From positions 1 to 61,250 of the forward strand of contig VGKG01000005.1 of the NCBI GenBank assembly GCA_016867115.1: a DNA stretch of 61,250 nucleotides, written 5' to 3'. Position 1 is the stretch's first letter. Every line of letters begins with the position of its first letter. Below the pieces are notes generated by a model, which ran no database searches, was not told the origin of the DNA, and saw only the letters and a program-made list of their open reading frames with translations. A program made the translations under genes and the position numbers. Of the stretch, positions 2,388 through 60,587 are shown in pieces. Source of the DNA: Candidatus Omnitrophota bacterium. Lineage in GTDB: Bacteria > Omnitrophota > Gorgyraeia > Gygaellales > Profunditerraquicolaceae.

Positions 2388-2596
2388 CACCAAAATTTTG
2401 CTTGTCGCAAAATTTTGATGTATGCACTACGCTCGCTAAGCCCCTTGTCGGGGCTTTTAACGCTCGCTTTAGTGCCACCAAATTTTTCCTTGTCGGAAAT
2501 TTTGATGTATGCACTACGCTCGCTAAGCCCCTTGTCGGGGCTTTTAACGCTCGCTTTAGTGCCACCAAATTTTTCCTTGTCGGAAAAATTTGGTGG
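2388..2596. repeat. Tandem 87-88 bp repeat immediately 3' of tRNA-Ala: two full units plus a partial third that overlaps the tRNA CCA end.
   Basis: Units at 2388-2475 and 2476-2562 are nearly identical, and a partial unit runs 2563-2596. Each unit holds hairpins with different stems but the same TTGTC loop: 2392-2416, 2438-2456, 2480-2503. The last copy forms a 15-bp stem, CCACCAAATTTTTCC/GGAAAAATTTGGTGG. Confidence 0.9.
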
Positions 2597-2904: not shown

Positions 2905-2947
2905 AACAAAAAGGGACACCCTTACGATTAGCTCAAAGGGTGTCCCT
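2905..2947 (-). terminator. Rho-independent terminator closing the pilus operon
   Basis: On the minus strand, the 12-bp stem AGGGACACCCTT/AAGGGTGTCCCT (2912-2923 and 2936-2947) is followed by TTTTTG. A second copy of the right arm overlaps the pilin stop codon. Confidence 0.7.
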
Positions 2948-2968
2948 GCTTTAGCTCAAAGGGTGTCC

Positions 2969-3586
2969 CTAATGCGTAGAAACAGAAGGCATCATAATGC
3001 GGCTTTGCATAACCACGGTGGGATTATCGGGGCTTCCGCAGGCAAAGGGGGTCTCGTCCGGGTCCCAGCAGGCAGTGATGAACACATCCACATAGTTGTT
3101 GGCGCTATTGTATACCTTATAAGTCTCGGGAGGCGTAGCCGGCAGCGAGGAGTAACCGGTGAAATCCGGCTGGATGACTTTCTGGGTTATCGTCTCAAAG
3201 ACAGCAGGGAAGTCGGTATAGTTGGCATAATAATTGAAACGGTAATTGGCGCTATCATAGACATAAGCTATCTGTTTATCGATAGTCGCGTCATCCCGCA
3301 TGCCGTTGCCGTTTGTATCCACCCATACCCGTATACTCTGGCTGGTGCCTATGACACCGATATCTACGGGCGGCTGATTAATATCCCCCACTGCCCCAAG
3401 CATCTGCTTGGCCATATGATCCAGCAGAAAGGAAACTTCGTTCTGGATCTTCGCCCTGCGGTCAGAAGAGATGACATGAAAACGGCTAAAGAGGTCCACG
3501 TTTGTCAGGGCCAGCGAGATAATTGCCAGCAGTATTATAGAAATCAATAGCTCAAGAAGGGTTAAAGCGGTAGCCGGCTTCTTCAT
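2969..3586 (-). CDS. Prepilin-type N-terminal domain protein (minor pilin/pseudopilin)
   Basis: The N-terminus MKKPATALTLLELLISIILLAIISLAL fits a class III signal with hydrophobic helix and Glu. It is the last gene of the pilus operon. Confidence 0.7.
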   Translation of the reverse strand: MKKPATALTLLELLISIILLAIISLALTNVDLFSRFHVISSDRRAKIQNEVSFLLDHMAKQMLGAVGDINQPPVDIGVIGTSQSIRVWVDTNGNGMRDDATIDKQIAYVYDSANYRFNYYANYTDFPAVFETITQKVIQPDFTGYSSLPATPPETYKVYNSANNYVDVFITACWDPDETPFACGSPDNPTVVMQSRIMMPSVSTH

Positions 3587-4017: not shown

Positions 4018-4407
4018 TTAAGGGCAGGCTCCCTCGCTAGGATCATCGTCGGTATTCTGCATCCTCCAGGTCCTGGCTCCGGAATCGGTCCTCGTAGCCT
4101 GGGCGCAAACGCTGTCGGCGCCGGCCACCGTCTGGTAGTCCCATCTGCGGTCGCCGCCGGTAGGCAGAAGCAGCTTGAAATTATCGTTGATCTCCGAGAT
4201 GTCGCTGGTTCCGTAGTATCCGCCTACTTCCATGCGGTAGATCTTTTCCGCGGCCACGATCAGCTTAAGATTTGCCTGCGCCTCGCGGTCAAGTGCGCGC
4301 TCGCGGTAAGAACCGTACTGGGTCAAGGCTAATGTAGCCAGAACGCCGAGGATGACGATAACGACGATAAGTTCCATCAGGGTAAGGCTTTTTTTACGCT
4401 TGTGCAT
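4018..4407 (-). CDS. Type IV pilin / GspG-like pseudopilin
   Basis: The N-terminus is KKSLTLMELIVVIVILGVLATLALTQYGSYRERA. Confidence 0.75.
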   Translation of the reverse strand: MHKRKKSLTLMELIVVIVILGVLATLALTQYGSYRERALDREAQANLKLIVAAEKIYRMEVGGYYGTSDISEINDNFKLLLPTGGDRRWDYQTVAGADSVCAQATRTDSGARTWRMQNTDDDPSEGACP

Positions 4408-4470: not shown

Positions 4471-4905
4471 TTAATAATCTCCGCTCCAGGTGTCCACGCC
4501 TGTGGTCATGTCAGAGACAAGCTGCACCGTGTTTCCTGCAGCAGTTCCGCCCTGGGGAATCTTCCCGCCTGCAGCGCAACGGGTAGCCGTAGCAGTGACG
4601 GTAGAGGCCGTAGTCGCTATGGCATAACTAAAGTAGTGCGAAGGCCTGCAATTGCCGCCTGCAGGGCCGGGGATCTGGTCTGCTCCGCCGCCGATATTAG
4701 CCTCGGTATCGCCGAAGCTTGACAGATCCGCATACTCCAGGTAATAGGCTGCGGCAAACTTGCGGATATCGCCTAAGATCGCCTTTGCCTCTGCTCCGCG
4801 GGCCCTTTCCACCATCCTACCATACTGGGTAAGACCAAGGGTAGCCAGGACGCCGAGGATGATGATAACGATGATTAATTCCAACAGCGTAAAACCTTTC
4901 TTCAT
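4471..4905 (-). CDS. Probable major type IV pilin
   Basis: MKKG|FTLLELIIVIIILGVLATLGLTQYGRMVERA is the N-terminus. I prefer the ATG at 4905 (AAGGAG 9 nt upstream) over the track start at 4932. It is the first pilin of the block and is followed by a strong hairpin. Confidence 0.75.
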   Translation of the reverse strand: MKKGFTLLELIIVIIILGVLATLGLTQYGRMVERARGAEAKAILGDIRKFAAAYYLEYADLSSFGDTEANIGGGADQIPGPAGGNCRPSHYFSYAIATTASTVTATATRCAAGGKIPQGGTAAGNTVQLVSDMTTGVDTWSGDY

Positions 4906-14380: not shown

Positions 14381-15013
14381 CTATTCGGTGAGAAAGTTCA
14401 CCAGTTCCGTAGAGACCCTCTCCATCTCTATGATGAAGCTATTGATGCGGCTGGCAAAATAGTTGTAAGCCACGAAAGTCGGGATCGCCACGATCAGCCC
14501 TGCGACGGTAGTCAGAAGCGCCTCCCAGATCCCGCCGGCGAGGTCGCCGGGTGAGACCGGATGAAAACTGGTGGCCTTGGCCTGGACAGTCTGGAAACAC
14601 CTGACCATTCCGGTGACCGTGCCCAAGAGCCCCAAAAGCGGTGAGACATGAGCGATTGTTGCAAGCGCGGTAAGATTTTTTTTAAGGCGCGGTATCTCAT
14701 ACAATGAGGCGTCCTCTATACTCTCGACGATCTGCTGTTTCGGGCGGTCGTATTTTAAGACGCCGGCCTTGAGGATATTGGAGACCGGCCCCCTGGTAGA
14801 ATCGCAGATCTGCAGCGCCTCTTTTGTGTCGTGGTGTTTCAGTTTTTCGATGATCCTGGCCAGGAACGCCTGAGTATCGATATTGATGGCATGCAGGTGC
14901 ATGAACTTTTCCAGGACGATCGTAAAGGCAAAGAGCGAACAGAAAAGTATCGGCCACATCACCGGACCGCCCGCTAAAAATATCTGCCAGACACTCATCT
15001 TATAAAGATCCAT
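14381..15013 (-). CDS. exbB: MotA/TolQ/ExbB proton channel
   Basis: Has three TM segments and the C-terminal GLLGTVTGM...ALLTTVAGL pattern. Confidence 0.88.
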   Translation of the reverse strand: MDLYKMSVWQIFLAGGPVMWPILFCSLFAFTIVLEKFMHLHAINIDTQAFLARIIEKLKHHDTKEALQICDSTRGPVSNILKAGVLKYDRPKQQIVESIEDASLYEIPRLKKNLTALATIAHVSPLLGLLGTVTGMVRCFQTVQAKATSFHPVSPGDLAGGIWEALLTTVAGLIVAIPTFVAYNYFASRINSFIIEMERVSTELVNFLTE

Positions 15014-24660: not shown

Positions 24661-25539
24661 CTACTTCAGTAACCCGTAGTCCTTCAGCGCTTTTTTAAGT
24701 TTCTCCAGATTCTCCGGCGACATGGAACACATCGGCAGCCTGAGGTCCGGTTCGCATAAACCCATCATGCCCATGGCCGTCTTTACCGGTATGGGATTGG
24801 TCTCTAAAAAGCAGGTCTTGATCAGCGGCAGGAGCTTAAAATGCAGCTCCTTTGCTTTTTTCAGGTTCCCTTTCTCAAACTCAAGCACCATCTCCGCGAC
24901 ATCCTTAGGCGCGATATTCGCGACTACGGAGATTATCCCTGTCCCGCCGATGCTTAATACCGGAAGGGTCAAGGAGTCGTCCCCGGAGATCAGACAGAAA
25001 GACGGCGGGCATAATTGCTTTATGCGCGACATCTGATCAAGGCTGCCGGAGGCCTCCTTCACGCCCACGATATTCTTGCAATCACCGGCAAGCCTTGCTA
25101 TCGTCTCCGGCTCGATGTTCACCCCGGTGCGCGAAGCAATGTTATAGAGGATGATCGGGATATCCACGGCTTCGGCAATGGCCTTAAAATGCTCATAAAG
25201 CCCGCGCTGTGTGGGCCGGTTATAATAGGGTGAGACCTGCAGCGACGCATCCGCCCCGCTCTCCGCAGCGTGCTTAGTCAGGGTAATCGCCTCTTCGGTG
25301 GAGTTTGAGCCGGTGCCGGCGATGACCGGAACCCTTTTTTTGACCTGATCGATGGTGATCTCGATCACTTTGTCGTGTTCCAGGAATGATAACGTAGCCG
25401 ATTCTCCGGTCGTGCCGCAGGGGACGATGCCAGAGGTGCCGTTTTCGATCTGGAAATCGATCAGGTCCCGCAGTTTCTTTTCGTCGACCATTCCGTTTTT
25501 GAATGGCGTAACTATGGCTACTATTGAACCCTTAAACAT
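24661..25539 (-). CDS. dapA: 4-hydroxy-tetrahydrodipicolinate synthase
   Basis: Has GTTGESATL and the overall DapA pattern. Confidence 0.93.
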   Translation of the reverse strand: MFKGSIVAIVTPFKNGMVDEKKLRDLIDFQIENGTSGIVPCGTTGESATLSFLEHDKVIEITIDQVKKRVPVIAGTGSNSTEEAITLTKHAAESGADASLQVSPYYNRPTQRGLYEHFKAIAEAVDIPIILYNIASRTGVNIEPETIARLAGDCKNIVGVKEASGSLDQMSRIKQLCPPSFCLISGDDSLTLPVLSIGGTGIISVVANIAPKDVAEMVLEFEKGNLKKAKELHFKLLPLIKTCFLETNPIPVKTAMGMMGLCEPDLRLPMCSMSPENLEKLKKALKDYGLLK

Positions 25540-26377
25540 TAATCACCCCCGTATAGACGAGCCTCGCTTTTCCTTCAAGCCAGACGTCGCTGAAGGAGCG
25601 GCCTTCTCTTTTAAAATATACCCTCAGGGTTTCGCCGCTAAGCGTACACACATCCACCCTTCTTCCGGCGCCGGTCTTAAGGCCAAAGATTAGCGCTGCG
25701 GCAACGCTGCCCGTGCCGCAGGCCAGGGTCTCATCCTCGACGCCCCTTTCATAGGTGCGCACACAGATCTTATCTTTATCCATGGCTTCCGCAAAATCCG
25801 CATTCGTGCCTGCCGGAGCAAACCGGCTATGATAGCGGATCGCCCGGCCGAGGTCGTTGATATACATCTCATCCAGCCCTTCGACAAAGGTCACCGCATG
25901 CGGTACTCCGGTATCGATGAAGTTCGTCTTAAGATTCCTGCCCATCACCCGGACAGGCAGATCCAACCTTATGTTTTTCGGGCTGGTCAATTTTATCCTA
26001 ACATTATCCCCTGCAACAAGTGATTCGATTATTCCGGCCTTTGTCTCTATCCTCACTTGTGACCTTCTGACCTTGTCCCCTCCGGGGAGGCTGCGCTTCG
26101 CTTCGCGCTGACCTTGTGACTTATACAACGCCGTGCACCTTGCGCCGTTACCGCACATTTGGGCCTCTGAGCCGTCGGCATTAAAGATGCGCATCCTGAC
26201 ATCCGCGGCCTTTGTTTTCTCAAGAAGCAGCAGGCCGTCAGCACCGATACCGAGTTTTCTGTCACAGATTTTTCTCGCCAGTATCCTGTGACTTTGTGAC
26301 CTGGTGACCTGGTGACTCTCTATAACCACGAAGTCATTACCGGAAGCCACCATCTTGGCAAAGATTATCTTTTTCAT
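25532..26377 (-). CDS. dapF: Diaminopimelate epimerase
   Basis: Has GNDFVV, and CGNGARC and ACGTGS supply the catalytic cysteines. Confidence 0.92.
   Translation of the reverse strand: MKKIIFAKMVASGNDFVVIESHQVTRSQSHRILARKICDRKLGIGADGLLLLEKTKAADVRMRIFNADGSEAQMCGNGARCTALYKSQGQREAKRSLPGGDKVRRSQVRIETKAGIIESLVAGDNVRIKLTSPKNIRLDLPVRVMGRNLKTNFIDTGVPHAVTFVEGLDEMYINDLGRAIRYHSRFAPAGTNADFAEAMDKDKICVRTYERGVEDETLACGTGSVAAALIFGLKTGAGRRVDVCTLSGETLRVYFKREGRSFSDVWLEGKARLVYTGVINV
26059..26123 (+). repeat. Split octamer array inside dapF: two GTGACCTT-type units, a 33-bp GC-rich insert, then two more units
   Basis: The units are gtgacctt and ctgacctt (26059-26074), then the insert gtcccctccggggaggctgcgcttcgcttcgcg (26075-26107), then ctgacctt and gtgactta (26108-26123). 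It encodes KSQGQREAKRSLPGGDKVRRSQ. Confidence 0.85.
26288..26319 (+). repeat. Four tandem GTGACNNN octamers inside dapF
   Basis: The units gtgacttt gtgacctg gtgacctg gtgactct encode ESHQVTRSQSHR. Confidence 0.9.
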
Positions 26378-27648
26378 AACCCCAGCAGGAAAGCCGGAAT
26401 GATCTCGTTACGCACCAGGTCATCCCAGGTATCCCTTTTCCTGATCACGAATGACTCACTTCCCACCACCAGCACCTCTTCGGCCCTCCTGCGGGAATTG
26501 TAATTGGAGGACATGCTGAATCCGTAGGCGCCGGCGCTCATCACCGCAAGGTATTCGCCTTCTCTGACCTTAGGCATGAGCCTTGCCTTGGCCAGAAAAT
26601 CCCCGCTCTCGCATATCGGACCTACAATATCAACCTTCTCTTGTGACCCGGTGACCCGGTGACCCGGTGACTTTAGCGGAACAATACTATGAAATGCTGC
26701 GTACAAAGACGGCCGGATAAGGTCATTCATCCCTGCATCCACGATCACGAACTTTTTCAGGGGGGTCTTTTTAATATATAAGACCTTAGTCACCAGGATC
26801 CCGGCATTACCAGAGATGAACCTGCCCGGCTCCATAATGATCTTAAGCCCGCGTTTTTTTAAGAGCGGCAGTACCTTTGCCGCAAACTTATCCGCAGTCT
26901 GGGGGGTCTCCTTATCATAGACTATTCCTAAGCCTCCGCCGATATTCAGATATTCCAGGACTATCCCTTCCTTGCGCAGCCTTCCGATAAAATCCACCAT
27001 CTTGCCGATGGCAGCCACGTAAGGGGCGCTTTCGGTGATCTGGGAGCCGATATGAATATGTAATCCCGATATCTTTACATTTGAGAGGGCCTTACGCACA
27101 AGAAAGATCTGCTGGGCGCTCTTAAAGTCTATGCCGAACTTATTGGTGAGCTTTCCGGTAGTGATGTACTTGTGGGTCTTAGGCTCCACATCCGGATTTA
27201 TGCGCAGCGCCACCTGTGCTGTGACCTTAAGCTTCCTGGCGATGCGGTTGATATTCTCAAGTTCAGGCACGCTCTCCACATTAAAGAAAAGGATCCGCTG
27301 CCTGAGCGCCTCTTCTATCTCCTTGTCGGTCTTGCCTACAGAAGCATAGACGATCCGGTTTGCGGGGCATCCCGCCTTTATAGCCCTTGAGAGCTCCCCT
27401 CCCGAAACAATATCCAGGCCCGCACCCTTATCCACGAGGCTGCGTAGGATTGCAAGGTTAGAATTCGCCTTCACCGAATAACAGATGAGCGGGTCTACGG
27501 AATGAAAGGCCTTCTTTAGTTTCAGGAAGTGGTCGACCAGCGTCTGATAACTGTAGACGTAAAGCGGGGTGCCGTACTTGCGCGCCAGGTCTTCGACTCT
27601 TACCTTTTCGCAATAAAGGTTTTTTCCCGTAAACTTAAACTCATGCAT
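26374..27648 (-). CDS. lysA: Diaminopimelate decarboxylase
   Basis: YSVKANSN carries the PLP lysine, with GGGLGI and the CESGD motif also present. Confidence 0.93.
   Translation of the reverse strand: MHEFKFTGKNLYCEKVRVEDLARKYGTPLYVYSYQTLVDHFLKLKKAFHSVDPLICYSVKANSNLAILRSLVDKGAGLDIVSGGELSRAIKAGCPANRIVYASVGKTDKEIEEALRQRILFFNVESVPELENINRIARKLKVTAQVALRINPDVEPKTHKYITTGKLTNKFGIDFKSAQQIFLVRKALSNVKISGLHIHIGSQITESAPYVAAIGKMVDFIGRLRKEGIVLEYLNIGGGLGIVYDKETPQTADKFAAKVLPLLKKRGLKIIMEPGRFISGNAGILVTKVLYIKKTPLKKFVIVDAGMNDLIRPSLYAAFHSIVPLKSPGHRVTGSQEKVDIVGPICESGDFLAKARLMPKVREGEYLAVMSAGAYGFSMSSNYNSRRRAEEVLVVGSESFVIRKRDTWDDLVRNEIIPAFLLGL
26643..26674 (+). repeat. Four tandem GTGACNNN octamers inside lysA
   Basis: The units gtgacccg (three times) then gtgacttt encode KSPGHRVTGSQ. 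Confidence 0.9.
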
Positions 27649-34528: not shown

Positions 34529-35547
34529 AAGAGCCCGAGCGTCTCGGAGAGGCCGTACATGATATTCATATTCTGGACTGCCTGCCCCGAAGCGCCCTTT
34601 AAAAGATTATCGATCCCTGCGACGACGATCACGGAACCCTCTTCTTCCTTTACGCAGATATCGCAGAAGTTAGACTTTAGCACGTCTTTAAGCCGCGGAA
34701 AATCCCCTTCCTGCCTGACCCTGACAAAAGGCTCACCCTTATAAAACTCCTTGTATAGATTTATCAATCCATGAGCTATGGGCTTTGAGCTATGGGCTTT
34801 TTTTACATACACCGTCGCCAGTATCCCCCTGTTTAAGGGCAGCAGATGCGGCACAAAGGTGACCTTCAAAGGTTTTCCGGAGGCGTTTGACAATTCCTGG
34901 TCGATCTCCGGAGCATGCTGATGCGCGTTCACCCTGTAGGCCTTGAAATCCTCGTTGACCTCGGAGAATAAAAATCCCTCTGCCAGCTTCCTCCCCGCGC
35001 CGGTGACGCCGGACTTGGCGTCGATGATGATCGAATCAGGCTCTATAGCCCCTGACGAAACCAGAGGGGCCAACGCCAGGATCGCCACCGTCGGATAGCA
35101 GCCGGGGTTTGCGACTAAAGCAGCGCCCTTGATCTTCTGCCTGTAGATCTCAGGCAACCCGTATACCGCATCCTTTACATGCGCCGTATCCGTATGCCTG
35201 ACGTTATAATGCTTCTCGTAAACGGCAATATCCTTGATGCGGTAATCGGCGCTAAGGTCTATTATCCTCTTGCCCGGCTTCAATAATTTAGGCACCATCT
35301 CCATCGAGACCGTATGCGGAAGGGCAAGGAATATCAGGTCTGATTTTGCGGCGATCTCTTCCGGGTCGGGAAGATTACAGGTCAGATCTAACCGGTTCAT
35401 GAATCTGGGGAAAAGGCCTGAGATATCTTGCGGCTTGTCGATCTTGGCCGAGACGTGGGTGATCTTTATTTCGGGATGCCCAAGGAGCAGGTCGATCAAT
35501 TCCTCGCCGGCATAACCGGTCGCTCCGACGATGCTTACGTTTATCAT
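34525..35547 (-). CDS. argC: N-acetyl-gamma-glutamyl-phosphate reductase
   Basis: Has VSIVGATGYAGEEL and NPGCYPT with the catalytic Cys. Confidence 0.93.
   Translation of the reverse strand: MINVSIVGATGYAGEELIDLLLGHPEIKITHVSAKIDKPQDISGLFPRFMNRLDLTCNLPDPEEIAAKSDLIFLALPHTVSMEMVPKLLKPGKRIIDLSADYRIKDIAVYEKHYNVRHTDTAHVKDAVYGLPEIYRQKIKGAALVANPGCYPTVAILALAPLVSSGAIEPDSIIIDAKSGVTGAGRKLAEGFLFSEVNEDFKAYRVNAHQHAPEIDQELSNASGKPLKVTFVPHLLPLNRGILATVYVKKAHSSKPIAHGLINLYKEFYKGEPFVRVRQEGDFPRLKDVLKSNFCDICVKEEEGSVIVVAGIDNLLKGASGQAVQNMNIMYGLSETLGLL
34773..34800 (+). repeat. Tandem 14-mer (gagctatgggcttt, two copies) inside argC
   Basis: Two perfect adjacent copies encode KAHSSKPIAHG. Confidence 0.85.
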
Positions 35548-35593: not shown

Positions 35594-35672
35594 GATTACA
35601 CAGATTTCAAAACAGATTACACAGATTAAAGTTTCTAATCTGTGTAATCTAAGCGCTTTAATCTATGTAATC
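35594..35672. repeat. GATTACACAGATT nested palindromic element (two direct plus two inverted arms) upstream of argC
   Basis: Arms lie at 35594-35606, 35615-35627, 35637-35649 (inverted) and 35660-35672 (inverted, 1 mismatch). The inner stem is 14 bp and perfect. A near-identical element lies at 60513-60587. Confidence 0.85.
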
Positions 35673-35850
35673 ATAAATATGATCTTTATAAATGATTATC
35701 TTAAGATAAATTACCGACGAAGTCAAGTCTTTTTCTCGTCGGAGTCGAAAGCCCCCGCAGCTTCGCTTCGCGAAGCTAAACGCAGGGGTTATTTCAGCCA
35801 TAGACTTACGTCCACTGAAGAAATATAAGGTTCCGTAAGTCTAGGCTTCA

Positions 35851-35915: not shown

Positions 35916-36311
<396 letters not shown>

Positions 36312-41618: not shown

Positions 41619-42392
41619 CTAGTATTTTACCTTTAGCAGGCACAAACCCTTTGCCGGTGCTGTCGGCCCGGCAAGCCTGCGGTCGCGCGAATTAAGGATC
41701 CTCTCCAGAGCGCCTGCGTTTAGCTTGCCCCTGCCGATCTCAATGAGCGTGCCGACGATATTTCTGGCCATATTATACAGGAATCCGTCGGCCTCAATAT
41801 AAATATATATGAAATAACCCTGCTTCGCAACCTTTATTTGCTTAATGTGCCTCAGGGGATTCCTTGCCTTGCCACCGGAAGCCCGGAAAGAACTGAAGTC
41901 ATGCCGGCCCAGGAGCCTGCGGCTTTCTCTCTGCATCAGCCTGACGTCAAGGGGAAAAGGATAAAAGTAGGCGCTTCTTTTCAGGAAGGGGCTTGAGTGC
42001 TTGCGGTTTAAAATGGTGTAGCGGTAGAGTTTGGATCCGGCGGAAAAACGGCTATGAAAATCAAGCGGCGCTTCTTTTAAGGAATATACAGAGATGTCGT
42101 CGGGAAGGAGGCCGTTTAAGGCCCGTTCTAATTTCTCTAAGGGGATCTGTGAAGAGGTTTTAAAATTTGCAACTTGGCCTAAGGCATGCACCCCGGCATC
42201 AGTTCTTCCCGAGGCAATTAAACGGACCTTTTCCTGGAGGACCTTTTGGAGGGTCTTTTCTATTACTTCCTGGATACTTCTCTGGCGACCTGGCGACCTG
42301 GTGACCTGGTGACTTTGAATCTGCCAGCCGCAATAATCCGTTCCGTCGTACTCTATGCTGAGCCGGATATTCCTTATTATTTTACCAGGCAT
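41619..42392 (-). CDS. truA: tRNA pseudouridine(38-40) synthase
   Basis: Has YDGTDYCGWQ and GRTDAGVHA. Confidence 0.92.
   Translation of the reverse strand: MPGKIIRNIRLSIEYDGTDYCGWQIQSHQVTRSPGRQRSIQEVIEKTLQKVLQEKVRLIASGRTDAGVHALGQVANFKTSSQIPLEKLERALNGLLPDDISVYSLKEAPLDFHSRFSAGSKLYRYTILNRKHSSPFLKRSAYFYPFPLDVRLMQRESRRLLGRHDFSSFRASGGKARNPLRHIKQIKVAKQGYFIYIYIEADGFLYNMARNIVGTLIEIGRGKLNAGALERILNSRDRRLAGPTAPAKGLCLLKVKY
42285..42316 (+). repeat. Four tandem G(C/T)GACNNN octamers inside truA
   Basis: The units gcgacctg gcgacctg gtgacctg gtgacttt encode SHQVTRSPGRQ. Confidence 0.9.
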
Positions 42393-45546: not shown

Positions 45547-46842
45547 TTAGGATAGTTCTCCGGGATGCGTGACCCTGCCCGTAACTGCCGAGGCTGCGGC
45601 CACTGCGGGCCCGGACAGATAGACAAACGACTCAGGGCTGCCCATCCTTCCGATAAAATTACGGTTCGTGGTCGCAAGGCAGACTTCTCCGGCGGTAAGT
45701 ATCCCCATATGGCCGCCCAGACACGGGCCGCAGGAAGGCGTCTCAAACACCCCTCCTGCCCTGACAAAGACCTCCGCCAGCCCTTCCCTGACCGCCTCTA
45801 AATATATCTTCTGCGTCGCCGGGATGACTACCAGCCTCAACCCCGGCCTGATCTTCCTGCCGCGCAGGATCTTGGCCGCTACCTTTAAGTCCGTGATCCT
45901 TCCGTTAGTGCAGGAACCGATAACTACCTGGTCCAGCTTCACATTACCTAAGCTCGAAGCTGGCTTGACATTGCTGGGTAGATGGGGACAAGCCACCATG
46001 GGCTCAAGGCCCGAAACATTCCACTCGTAAATCTTCTCATAAACGGCATCTTTATCAGACTTAAGCCCTTCCCATGTTTTTAGCTTTTTACTTGTGACGT
46101 GGTGACCTTGTGACTTGGTGACCTCTTTTATATATCTCAGCGTTACCTCATCCGGCTCGATTATGCCTGCCCTGGCTCCGGCCTCTATCGCCATATTCGA
46201 TATGGTGAGCCTCTCTTCCGCGCCCAGCGCCCTGATCACCGGTCCGCTGAACTCCATTACCTTATATAAGGCGCCGTCTACGCCGATCTCGCCTATCGTA
46301 AACAGGATCAGGTCTTTTCCGCTGACCCATTTCTTGAGTTTTCCATGATAGACGAACTTTACCGTTTGCGGAACCTTCAACCAGCATTTGCCGTCAATAA
46401 AGGCGCGCGCAAGGTCAGTCGAACCCACCCCGGTGGCATAGCTGCCCAGCGCACCGTAAGTGCAGGTGTGCGAATCCGCGCCGATCACCAGGCTTCCCGG
46501 CAGCACCAGGCCCAGCTCCGGAAGGAGGACATGTTCAATACCCATACAGCCGACTTCAAAATAATTCCTGATCTTCTGCTCTCCGGCAAAATCCGCCAGG
46601 ACCTTGCACTGGTTTGCGCTTCTTGAATCCTTTGCCGGAGCAAAATGGTCCGGGACAAGGACTATTTTCCCGGGGTCAAAGACCTTCTTGAAGCCGGCCT
46701 TCCTGAACTCTGCGATAGCAAGGGGTGCGGTAATATCATTACCGAGGGCAAGATCGACATCTGCCTCGATAAACTCATGCGGCTTTATTGACTTCCTGCC
46801 GCAATGAGCCATGAGTATCTTTTCAGCGATTGTATAACCCAT
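45547..46842 (-). CDS. leuC: 3-isopropylmalate dehydratase large subunit
   Basis: It is aconitase-family, with GADSHT and the GSCTNGR and CGPCLG cluster ligands. Confidence 0.92.
   Translation of the reverse strand: MGYTIAEKILMAHCGRKSIKPHEFIEADVDLALGNDITAPLAIAEFRKAGFKKVFDPGKIVLVPDHFAPAKDSRSANQCKVLADFAGEQKIRNYFEVGCMGIEHVLLPELGLVLPGSLVIGADSHTCTYGALGSYATGVGSTDLARAFIDGKCWLKVPQTVKFVYHGKLKKWVSGKDLILFTIGEIGVDGALYKVMEFSGPVIRALGAEERLTISNMAIEAGARAGIIEPDEVTLRYIKEVTKSQGHHVTSKKLKTWEGLKSDKDAVYEKIYEWNVSGLEPMVACPHLPSNVKPASSLGNVKLDQVVIGSCTNGRITDLKVAAKILRGRKIRPGLRLVVIPATQKIYLEAVREGLAEVFVRAGGVFETPSCGPCLGGHMGILTAGEVCLATTNRNFIGRMGSPESFVYLSGPAVAAASAVTGRVTHPGELS
46094..46125 (+). repeat. Four tandem GTGACNNN octamers inside leuC
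   Basis: The units gtgacgtg gtgacctt gtgacttg gtgacctc encode EVTKSQGHHVTSK. Confidence 0.9.
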
Positions 46843-46845
46843 AGT

Positions 46846-46988
46846 TTAAATTCTAAATTCGAAATCCTAATTTCTAAACAAATCCCAAATCCTAAACTCC
46901 AACGTCCCAACAATACTTAGTTTGGAATTTGGGAAATTGAAATTTAGAAATTGTTTAGGATTTAGTGCTTGGGATTTAGAACTTAATT
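46846..46988. repeat. AT-rich imperfect inverted repeat of about 140 bp filling the fabF-leuC gap
   Basis: Both arms are built from aaatcctaa / tttctaaa / tcccaaat words that recur as their reverse complements (tttaggattt, tttagaaa, atttggga) on the other side of a centre near 46900-46915. Confidence 0.7.
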
Positions 46989-53508: not shown

Positions 53509-54231
53509 TTACGCTTCTTTCCTATAAATGGAGATTACAGTATCGCCGTACCTGGCTTGCTTGACGAGGCTAAGCTTTCCGGCTTGCCGGGGGAGCTCAT
53601 CGCGCTTAAAATGCTGCACTACCACCAGACCAATGGGCGCTAATATATCATAAGCCCCCAGCATTTGCAAGGCTTTTTTTGACGCAGAAGGCGGCACACC
53701 AACCCATCCTTTAGGGTTGGGTGTTGACGCAGAAGGCGGCACACCAACCCATCCTTTAGGGTTGGGTGTTGACGCAGAAGGCGGCACACCAACCTTTCTG
53801 TCCATAGAGGACGCACTTGGCAATCCTTTATGCCAAGGTGCCTTAAGGTTGGGCGTTGCCGTACCCTTCTTATAGTAAGGAGGGTCTAAGAAGATGATTT
53901 CAAAGCTTTTCTTCTCTTTATGCAGGAGCCGGATCGCGCTTTCAGAATCCAGGGGAATAAGGCTGCAGTCGGTTATTCCCAGGGACTCTATATTCCTGCG
54001 GATCGCCTGCAGGGATTCCCGTTCAGGCTCAACCAGGGTAAGGCTCGCAGCTCCCCTGGAGAGCGCCTCAAAGCCCACTGCCCCCGAACCGGCAAAAAGC
54101 TCCAGGAAAGAGAGCCCCTCGATGTCTCCCAGGATGTCAAAGACCGCCTTCCTTACCTTATTCTGGGTCGGCCGGATGCCTTTGGGCATCTTAAGGAGCC
54201 TGCCTTTGAATATACCGGTAGTTATTCTCAT
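53509..54231 (-). CDS. rsmD: 16S rRNA (guanine966-N2)-methyltransferase RsmD with an internal repeat insertion of about 60 aa
   Basis: Has RPTQNKVRKAVFDIL, LELFAGSGAVGFEALSRGA and IFLDPPY. At 240 aa it is longer than the usual 180-190 aa. Confidence 0.88.
   Translation of the reverse strand: MRITTGIFKGRLLKMPKGIRPTQNKVRKAVFDILGDIEGLSFLELFAGSGAVGFEALSRGAASLTLVEPERESLQAIRRNIESLGITDCSLIPLDSESAIRLLHKEKKSFEIIFLDPPYYKKGTATPNLKAPWHKGLPSASSMDRKVGVPPSASTPNPKGWVGVPPSASTPNPKGWVGVPPSASKKALQMLGAYDILAPIGLVVVQHFKRDELPRQAGKLSLVKQARYGDTVISIYRKEA
53681..53866. repeat. In-frame array of hairpin units inside rsmD: two perfect 45-bp units, a partial third and diverged copies
   Basis: Units run 53681-53725 and 53726-53770, with a partial unit 53771-53794. 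A diverged hairpin lies at 53813-53841 and a half copy at 53841-53866. All hairpins share the loop ATCCTTTA and a bulged G. Confidence 0.9.
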
Positions 54232-60512: not shown

Positions 60513-60587
60513 GATTACACAGATTTATTTAGATTACACAGATTGAAGCTTTAATCTGTGTAATCTACCCTTATAATCTGCGTAATC
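60513..60587. repeat. Second GATTACACAGATT nested palindromic element, upstream of the KS-partner gene
   Basis: Arms lie at 60513-60525, 60532-60544, 60553-60565 (inverted) and 60575-60587 (inverted, 1 mismatch). The architecture matches 35594-35672. Confidence 0.85.

Follow-up and report, generated by a model that had tools for sequence, protein, structure and literature searches.

How can a tandem repeat whose unit length is not a multiple of three persist inside essential genes, where such repeats are usually regarded as lethal or as phase-variation switches? The question is raised by a 61,250-nt stretch of DNA from a Candidatus Omnitrophota bacterium (contig VGKG01000005.1 of assembly GCA_016867115.1, positions 1–61250; the window hereafter), which carries five arrays of four 8-nt units, two of them in dapF and one each in lysA, truA, and leuC. 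All five lie in-frame within minus-strand coding sequences (CDSs), and in gene sense their unit is RGTCACMN (Table 1). The octamer arrays in these four genes are genuine, and their similarity is driven by DNA, not by protein. The explanation we prefer, and to which we give about an even chance, is that they are tandem-repeat cassettes of 7- to 8-nt units that turn over at the DNA level, are filtered by the genes in which they lie, and carry their peptide as a passenger.

Octamer arrays in dapF, lysA, truA, and leuC

On the plus strand, the first dapF array and the lysA and leuC arrays each consist of four GTGACNNN units and the truA array of four GYGACNNN units. The second dapF array (26059–26123) is split, with two units on either side of a 33-nt insert. 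Runs of two, three, five, or six GTGAC-type units were not found in the window, nor were arrays on its minus strand. A first-pass annotation of this DNA had drawn attention to the arrays; when the sequence was rechecked, its coordinates were all correct, and the in-frame placement and the quoted peptides were reproduced for all five arrays. It had spoken of six loci, of which the five that it listed are real and a sixth was not found in the window. Against the possibility it left open, that the arrays are no more frequent than in composition-matched sequence, a three-unit pattern with up to two mismatches has eight matches in the window, where dinucleotide shuffles give an expectation of 0.01. 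Tandem Repeats Finder (TRF) confines period 8 to the array loci, at 3.6–4.0 copies. Six independent assemblies (Logan and JGI, from other samples or runs) match the window at 99.99–100% over 8–17 kb spanning both dapF and lysA, which rules out an assembly artefact. An Rfam search of the whole window found a tRNA-Ala alone, with no match at the arrays.

The starting codon phase is 1 for one dapF array and 2 for the other, 2 for the lysA array, 1 for truA, and 0 for leuC. Since all three phases are used, one DNA motif yields three peptide families. The same indifference to frame is seen among relatives: the site-1 dapF array of locus L215 is read in another register than that of the window, and a homologue of the 33-nt insert at locus L211 is read in a different frame. 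The earlier view that DNA drives the similarity is thus upheld by the three codon phases and by orthologues in which the units are different, the peptides are circularly permuted, or the array is missing. An ordinary protein motif would have shown itself as orthologues sharing the peptide without the DNA repeat; those compared have other units or short, array-free loops.

The uniform orientation of the arrays relative to their genes, which had been listed as a property in its own right, is forced. With a period of eight, three units suffice to put TGA in every frame of the GTGAC strand, which leaves the GTCAC sense as the only one in which a CDS can cross an array. All 128 of the 128 arrays listed in a scan of public genomes fit this rule, the long open reading frames (ORFs) that cross a run doing so only in the GTCAC sense. 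Essentially every long ORF of the window (1–61250) runs on the minus strand, and each 5-kb block has a negative GC skew, so that orientation to replication and to transcription are inseparable here; the window as a whole looks like a single co-oriented replichore segment. Chi-like (CTGGTG) and anti-Shine-Dalgarno-like (GGTCACC compared with GATCACC) readings of the unit were dropped, because the units of other lineages are unrelated and the orientation is coding-forced.

Copy number is filtered in a similar way. The frame survives the addition of three units, whatever their length, and four is therefore the smallest frame-keeping expansion of a single copy. "Exactly four", as first described, holds for the window arrays but is partly the product of this filter, for relatives carry arrays of seven and ten units as well as a three-unit polymorphism. 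The concern that an 8-nt repeat is prone to frameshifts is a real one that selection resolves, only three-unit steps having been seen. We also considered phase-variable contingency loci and rejected them: the hosts are core biosynthetic or tRNA-modification enzymes, all copies are in-frame, and the sole variant is one of three units.

The sites tolerate variation in the protein. In an AlphaFold2 model of the window DapF (mean predicted local distance difference test score [pLDDT] 86.6), confidence dips at residues 21–30 and 91–110. The first array forms the loop between a strand (residues 14–20) and a helix (28–38), in a block with pLDDT 72, and the second array with its insert (residues 85–106) is the worst part of the model, with blocks at 51 and 71 and residues 100–103 below 50. 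Alignments to PDB entries have variable or gapped segments at all array sites examined, and TruA of the window is 8 aa longer than TruA of Escherichia coli. As modelled, then, the arrays occupy permissive, low-confidence surface loops, consistent with the variable-segment location proposed at the outset. At the RNA level, the four uninterrupted arrays fold no better than shuffled sequence (z-scores +0.97 to −2.07), and an RNA hairpin or self-pairing of GGTCACC units was rejected on that result.

Recurrence and turnover in other Omnitrophota

For each of DapF, TruA, and LeuC, 120 Omnitrophota orthologues were aligned, and the DNA of syntenic loci (L-numbered) was read for relatives. Among the loci listed in a metagenome scan with a DapF profile, six match the window DapF at 55% identity or more; loci from other phyla served as controls. 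The arg-lysA-dapF-dapA-dapB cluster of the window is conserved and syntenic across Omnitrophota.

The same loops are hot spots for arrays of differing sequence. At DapF sites 1 and 2, four copies of GTCACAAA are found in L127, four of the heptamer GCCAAAA and four of GTCACAAG in L128, seven (site 1) and four GAGCACAA-type units in L129, and four of AAAGTCGC and four of GTCACAAG in L130. L215 has four GTCRCAAG units plus CTCCCAA-type heptamers, L212 has AGCTCCA heptamers at its array loops, and other orthologues have a short loop and no array. The TruA, LeuC, and LysA loops likewise host units that differ between lineages, and the LeuC array site is a hot spot among its 120 orthologues. The strict peptide signature of a GTCAC octamer occurs in only 8 of 120 DapF and 5 of 120 TruA orthologues, always at hot-spot loops; the GTCAC unit thus has many counterparts in Omnitrophota and does not dominate among them. 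In an unselected metagenome locus whose DapF is 44% identical to that of the window (L142), ACAAACT is repeated 5.0 times (385–419) at about residue 21, in the site-1 loop, and the DapF site-1 hot spot may thus extend beyond Omnitrophota.

Whether the arrays were inserted or replaced existing sequence had been posed as a matter for orthologue alignment, and the answer differs by gene. In TruA, where the 8-aa excess is an insertion, loop length is bimodal (38–39 aa in 57 orthologues, 43–46 aa in 47); the difference of 7 or 8 aa corresponds to three extra heptamers or octamers, and a longer tail has additional inserts. The LeuC loop has a minimum of 17 aa (10 sequences), array forms of 25–29 aa, and hairpin forms of 42–47 aa, and the window's array loop is 6 aa longer than that of chain 4nqy. 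At DapF site 2, the window exceeds Acinetobacter DapF by 11 aa, which is the 33-nt inner insert, the four-unit array itself filling a pre-existing loop length. In LysA, a variable loop has given way to the array, and the net gain over three orthologues at 73–75% identity is 1 aa. These alignments indicate that arrays are sometimes additions in three-unit quanta and sometimes occupy pre-existing sequence.

The most direct evidence for turnover comes from two dapF alleles from different samples (L214 and L215), which agree at all 852 aligned bases and are told apart by a single 21-nt indel, equal to three heptamers, that falls inside the heptamer array. On neighbour-joining trees, Fitch parsimony requires 28 changes for array presence among the 120 TruA sequences (randomised mean 39.8, minimum 27) and 21 for DapF site 2 (31.6 randomised); although these are short single-gene trees and poorly resolved, array presence and absence would on these counts be very labile. 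Within arrays, the units of truA follow an AABB and those of leuC an ABAB pattern, and three of four units in L130 share one A-to-G change, patterns that point to possible conversion or duplication among units.

Some arrays are themselves interrupted. The insert in the second dapF array joins a GCGAAGC motif to a CCCC-GGA-GGGG hairpin. L211 (DapF 78% identical to that of the window) has a near-identical element, TGCGCAGCGAAGCGAAGCCTCCCCGAAGGGGAC, in its site-2 dapF array, and so does L213 in its truA array (TruA 83% identical), at the place where the window's truA array is uninterrupted. Across these loci the ~33-nt mini-element has a GCGAAGC motif plus a CCCC-GRA-GGGG hairpin and is read in differing frames. 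Locus L212 has four copies of a 21-nt palindrome, CCTGCCTGTCCGGCAGGCAGG, in a 1.1-kb stretch, three of them in dapF and the other in lysA. Tandem heptamers border every copy on either side; one copy is inverted, and the units around it differ. The peptide that the palindrome encodes (PACPAGRQ and variants) is found again at the same loops of many DapF, TruA, and LeuC orthologues. To judge from these loci, the arrays are preferred hosts of tiny dispersed hairpin elements, at or near the array centre, and copy-paste mobility is likely for the nested inserts. A 13-mer of the dapF insert, GCTTCGCTTCGCG, occurs once more in the window, at 35760–35772, beside a GC-rich hairpin in the spacer between an ORF end at 35547 and an ORF start at 35916; this recurrence is weakly above chance, 5 of 100 shuffles reaching two matches.

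Arrays also occur between genes. Omnitrophota spacers contain inverted pairs of heptamer or octamer arrays of ~4.3 copies that fold into hairpins with ~30-bp arms, one of which adjoins leuC in the window (46843–46988), and dapF neighbourhoods in other phyla often contain similar arrays. The first-pass annotation had seen no arrays in intergenic DNA. This is correct for GTGAC-type arrays in the window, where spacers hold other arrays with 7- to 9-nt units (e.g., 46847–46878), but it fails as a general rule, GTGAC-type arrays being present in spacers of the related Omnitrophota L040, L076, and L077. In ~0.96 Mb of unselected loci, arrays within long ORFs have mostly 3.5–4.9 copies, under an ORF criterion that admits some false coding calls.

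We looked for the GTGAC unit more widely. Four GTGACNNN units match in many phyla among those listed in the public genome scan. On viral contigs, however, counts are 94 for the GTGAC core and 49, 56, and 39 for the control cores GAGTC, CAGTG, and GTAGC (all within ~2.4-fold), and none of 79 period-7 or -8 arrays of other phyla in the unselected loci has a GTCAC core. Because control cores give comparable counts and no core-bearing array was found among the 79, most matches in the genome scan are generic octanucleotide microsatellites, and we rejected a universal GTGAC element across bacteria. By sequence comparison, the GTGAC unit is best regarded as one lineage-level variant among many.

Table 1. 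Arrays, host genes, inserts, and spacer hairpins in the window and in related loci (locus coordinates for L-numbered entries)
Feature	Position	Strand	Plus-strand units	Gene-sense sequence	Product, peptide, or description
dapF array 1	26288–26319	minus	GTGACTTT GTGACCTG GTGACCTG GTGACTCT	AGTCACCA GGTCACCA GGTCACAA AGTCACAG	SHQVTRSQSH, DapF residues 21–30
dapF array 2, distal half (gene sense)	26059–26074	minus	GTGACCTT CTGACCTT		2 units
Mini-hairpin insert, centre of dapF array 2	26075–26107	minus		GCGAAGCGAAGC then CCTCCCCGGAGGGGAC	33 nt; REAKRSLPGGD
dapF array 2, proximal half (gene sense)	26108–26123	minus	CTGACCTT GTGACTTA		2 units
lysA array	26643–26674	minus	GTGACCCG x3, GTGACTTT	AGTCACCG GGTCACCG GGTCACCG GGTCACAA	SPGHRVTGSQ
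truA array	42285–42316	minus	GCGACCTG GCGACCTG GTGACCTG GTGACTTT	AGTCACCA GGTCACCA GGTCGCCA GGTCGCCA	SHQVTRSPGRQ
leuC array	46094–46125	minus	GTGACGTG GTGACCTT GTGACTTG GTGACCTC	GGTCACCA AGTCACAA GGTCACCA CGTCACAA	ABAB = 2 x 16 nt; VTKSQGHHVTSK
dapF	25532–26377	minus			Diaminopimelate epimerase, 281 aa; two arrays
lysA	26374–27648	minus			Diaminopimelate decarboxylase, 424 aa
truA	41619–42392	minus			tRNA pseudouridine 38-40 synthase, 257 aa
leuC	45547–46842	minus			3-isopropylmalate dehydratase large subunit, 431 aa
Long hairpin between leuC and the next gene	46843–46988	none			Arms of tandem heptamers TAAATTC/TAAATCC; minimum free energy −38.6 kcal/mol for 151 nt
L127 spacer hairpins	2993–3065; 14935–15002				Inverted heptamer/octamer arrays
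L132 spacer hairpin	4792–4890				Inverted heptamer/octamer arrays
L129 spacer hairpin	2919–2976				Inverted heptamer/octamer arrays
L040 spacer hairpin	4212–4273				Inverted heptamer/octamer arrays
L212 palindrome CCTGCCTGTCCGGCAGGCAGG	1511–1531; 1927–1947; 2143–2163; 2575–2595				21 nt

Other repeats were noted in the window. A 13-mer, GATTACACAGATT, is present in two direct and two inverted copies with the same spacing in two intergenic regions (35594–35672 and 60513–60587; eight matches compared with 0.8 expected) and looks like a dispersed operator-like or hairpin element. The gene for tRNA-Ala(CGC) (2591–2665) is flanked by tandem repeats at 2388–2586 (87 nt, 2.3 copies, 96% identity) and 2689–2868 (68 nt, 2.7 copies, 86% identity). 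A perfect 45-nt repeat of 2.6 copies (53679–53794), with an internal palindrome CACCCAACCC...GGGTTGGGTG, lies in the minus-strand ORF 53509–54231, and the minus-strand ORF 1102–2205 has a degenerate heptamer array (1049–1094; CAAAACA, 6.4 copies, 77% matches) immediately downstream of it.

Explanations for the arrays

In the reading we prefer, the arrays would be cassettes, usually of four copies and ~30–32 nt, of the same class as the tandem-heptamer arms of the Omnitrophota intergenic hairpins. Inside a gene, such a cassette would persist only if it fell in a permissive surface loop, ran in the stop-free GTCAC sense, and had a copy number offset by multiples of three units (1, 4, 7, 10), which keeps the frame. 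Its translated peptide would be a passive hydrophilic loop filler, probably without function. Turnover would be driven by slipped-strand or unequal exchange in three-unit steps together with unit-to-unit conversion, processes expected to keep arrays internally homogeneous while units drift between lineages, and the arrays would serve as preferred landing sites for hairpin-forming inserts of 21–33 nt.

Several observations weigh against this account. About four copies is also the mode among non-coding arrays, and the period-7 and -8 arrays in non-coding DNA of the unselected loci have a modal length of 31 nt; since they share this mode, "about four" is not due to the reading frame alone. The arrays of LysA and of DapF site 1 take the place of a loop without adding the 8 aa that a simple expansion would give. 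No variation in array length was seen in the window's own population, as sampled by the six assemblies and by 90% protein clusters. A single 8-nt copy cannot slip, and two- and three-copy intermediates are frameshifts in essential genes, so stepwise slippage does not cover the origin of the first four-unit array.

The sequence of the unit is a further difficulty. All five window arrays share one unit family. Among dapF genes of the window, L127, L128, L130, and L215, four-fold degenerate sites are 30–47% identical, that is, saturated, and yet the arrays at sites 1 and 2 are identical at 24–29 of 32 bases (75–91%). The 32 positions are not independent, as units co-evolve, and the fair comparison is the 8-nt unit, at which 7–8 of 8 positions match across several lineages. 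The GTCRCAAR unit is thus retained between lineages despite saturation. Neutral concerted evolution predicts that units drift, as they have in L129, so something beyond turnover retains or regenerates the unit. It could be selection acting on the sequence, a generating process that prefers certain sequences, or transfer; a sequence bias, arising from a trans-acting factor or from biased generation, would probably explain the retention.

Of the alternatives, the one that these difficulties favour most treats the arrays as cis-elements, candidate binding sites for a multimeric nucleic-acid-binding protein with one subunit per 7- to 8-nt unit. Four units would span about three helical turns, and the protein might bind double-stranded DNA in ribbon-helix-helix style or single-stranded RNA through Csp- or S1-type oligonucleotide/oligosaccharide-binding (OB) folds. 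In so gene-dense a genome, such sites would be located in coding loops that tolerate them, and their unit sequence would be maintained by selection. We consider this possible but doubtful. It gains real weight because the origin of the first array, the ~31-nt mode in non-coding DNA, and the shared and retained unit are left unexplained by turnover; each of the last two is what binding sites would lead one to expect, as are the GTGAC-type arrays, including inverted pairs, in spacers of other Omnitrophota. The same hypothesis was put forward for four-repeat elements inside and between genes of Geobacter metallireducens (PMC2700814). Against it, array presence at a given site is scattered almost at random over the tree, a strange pattern if the site is needed; unrelated units occupy the same loops in many lineages, the arrays lie away from promoters, and the non-independence of units inflates their apparent conservation.

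A broader proposal, which we hold as speculative and rather unlikely, is that cassettes of four 7- to 8-nt units, both intragenic and as inverted spacer pairs, are the cis half of a genome-wide system in Omnitrophota and several other phyla that is recognised, maintained, and perhaps written by a candidate trans-acting factor. If so, the factor could be a protein that binds DNA or RNA as an array, or else a machinery for templated insertion or conversion; the unit would be kept constant over saturating divergence, mini-hairpins would be recruited to the array centre, and essential genes would tolerate sites in loops only and in three-unit quanta only.

It is improbable that the arrays are copies of a non-autonomous mobile mini-element (resembling Rickettsia palindromic elements [RPEs], miniature inverted-repeat transposable elements [MITEs], or cyanobacterial small dispersed repeats [SDRs]), with blocks of ~24–32 nt pasted in by a trans-acting enzyme. 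Insertion of a pre-formed block would sidestep the frameshifted intermediates and would fit a single unit family at five loci, and the nested hairpins are clearly dispersed, the 33-nt element in dapF of the window and of L211 and in truA of L213 and the 21-nt element within L212. The arrays themselves, however, have no terminal inverted repeats, target-site duplications, or conserved flanks; copies are not alike from unit to unit, different lineages reuse orthologous sites for different units, the LysA array replaces sequence and is not added to it, and the three-unit polymorphism resembles slippage.

Selection on the peptide, as a hydrophilic linker of Ser, His, Gln, Val, Thr, and Arg of which the DNA periodicity is a by-product, is very improbable: the peptides are hydrophilic and lie in loops, but three phases of the same DNA give different peptides, orthologues either show an unrelated peptide at the site or lack the extra residues, homologous inserts are in different frames in close relatives, and a nucleotide periodicity of up to 100% (lysA, L127, L128) is needless for a linker. 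An assembly or sequencing artefact has a negligible probability given the six independent assemblies, the intact frames, and the same architecture in many other assemblies; it and protein-level selection are effectively excluded.

Non-triplet repeats are here stable, translated, and spread phylum-wide in catalytic enzymes. They provide a natural example of a DNA repeat process filtered by the reading frame, with copy number held to steps of three units, the strand dictated, and the arrays confined to loops, and the constancy of the unit beyond synonymous saturation sharpens the question of whether such arrays are binding sites, selfish elements, or mutational by-products. For protein analysis, the cassettes inflate loop lengths and create spurious low-complexity "motifs" in protein families; they also mark permissive insertion sites in DapF, LysA, TruA, and LeuC.

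Comparison with known repeat systems

RPEs, to which the first-pass annotation had likened the arrays, are reportedly palindromic, ~100–150 bp long, and dispersed in-frame in housekeeping ORFs. Both are DNA-level repeats lying in-frame at permissive surface positions of conserved ORFs and encoding a passenger peptide, and to this extent the resemblance stands. The hairpin, the length, and the near-identity of copies have no counterpart: the arrays are 32-nt direct repeats with no secondary structure, their copies differ unit by unit, and they sometimes replace sequence. We therefore rejected identity with RPEs, on the direct repeats, the length, and the folding z-scores given above, and keep the comparison as an analogy; only the nested hairpin inserts of 21–33 nt resemble miniature RPEs. 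These inserts may also be set beside the small dispersed repeats of Nostoc, which are said to be ~21–27 nt long, in some cases hairpin-forming, possibly mobile, able to lie within genes, and associated with short tandem repeats, much as the L212 palindrome lies in heptamer arrays and the 33-nt insert in a dapF array; phylum and sequences differ.

Ribbon-helix-helix operators share the periodicity. MetJ binds two to five 8-bp metboxes, the omega protein binds seven to ten 7-bp WATCACW heptads in direct or inverted orientation, and ParG binds 8-bp repeats at parH. As in the arrays and spacer pairs described here, 7- to 8-bp tandem repeats occur in both direct and inverted arrangements, and the omega heptad has a TCAC core. 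The operators are promoter or centromere sites with known proteins, whereas the arrays are intragenic, and we take the likeness as a possible mechanistic lead and not as a claim of membership.

Long simple sequence repeats (SSRs) with units of 5–11 nt (Mrazek et al. 2007, as summarised in PMC4679880), the heptamers of cyanobacterial short tandemly repeated repetitive (STRR) sequences, and the TAACTGA repeats of Beggiatoaceae (MacGregor 2015, PMC4679880) resemble the arrays in having head-to-tail units of 7–8 nt, typically in two to six copies, with a sporadic phyletic spread. Like long SSRs, the arrays are head to tail beyond chance, as the TRF periodicity and the shuffles indicate, and change in copy number, as between L214 and L215 and in L129. 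TAACTGA repeats, for which a role as single-stranded RNA binding sites was proposed, are barred from ORFs in the "forward" sense by stops in three frames and are occasionally translated in the "reverse" sense (MacGregor 2015, PMC4679880). Repeats of these kinds are mostly intergenic or at the termini of hypothetical proteins, whereas the Omnitrophota arrays lie inside conserved catalytic enzymes, at orthologous loops, and phylum-wide. The generalisation from Mrazek et al., in the form in which that summary gives it (PMC4679880), is that repeats in coding sequence have unit lengths in multiples of three; unlike those, the non-triplet units described here survive through three-unit quantisation.

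The closest precedent we found, to judge by architecture, is the set of four-repeat elements of G. metallireducens. As described in the genome paper, its Gmet_H4## elements consist of four tandem heptanucleotides of consensus GGACCGG in 49 copies, and paired sites on opposite strands consist of four tandem octanucleotides GTTGCTYN, from which insertion sequences keep a fixed distance (Aklujkar et al. 2009, PMC2700814); both were proposed, without experiment, as regulatory RNA or as sites for a global regulator. From that account, the two systems share exactly four tandem 7- or 8-nt units, multiple copies, and one unit family per genome. Both are found within genes, some with more than one (here five arrays in 61 kb, two of them in dapF), and between genes. 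The paired opposite-strand sites recall the inverted arrays of Omnitrophota spacers, and the insertion sequences at a fixed distance recall the mini-inserts in the array centre. The phylum differs and the RGTCACMN unit is unrelated to GGACCGG or GTTGCTYN, so what is shared is architecture and not homology. In its account of these elements, the paper (PMC2700814) reports neither a logic of frame and orientation nor orthologous hot spots, three-unit polymorphism, or translation as loops. What appears to be new is the phylum-wide recurrence of arrays at orthologous loops of core enzymes, their three-unit quantisation with its polymorphism, the conservation of the unit past saturation, and the nested mini-hairpins, and the comparison links the four-repeat elements of G. 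metallireducens to a much wider set of uncultivated bacteria.

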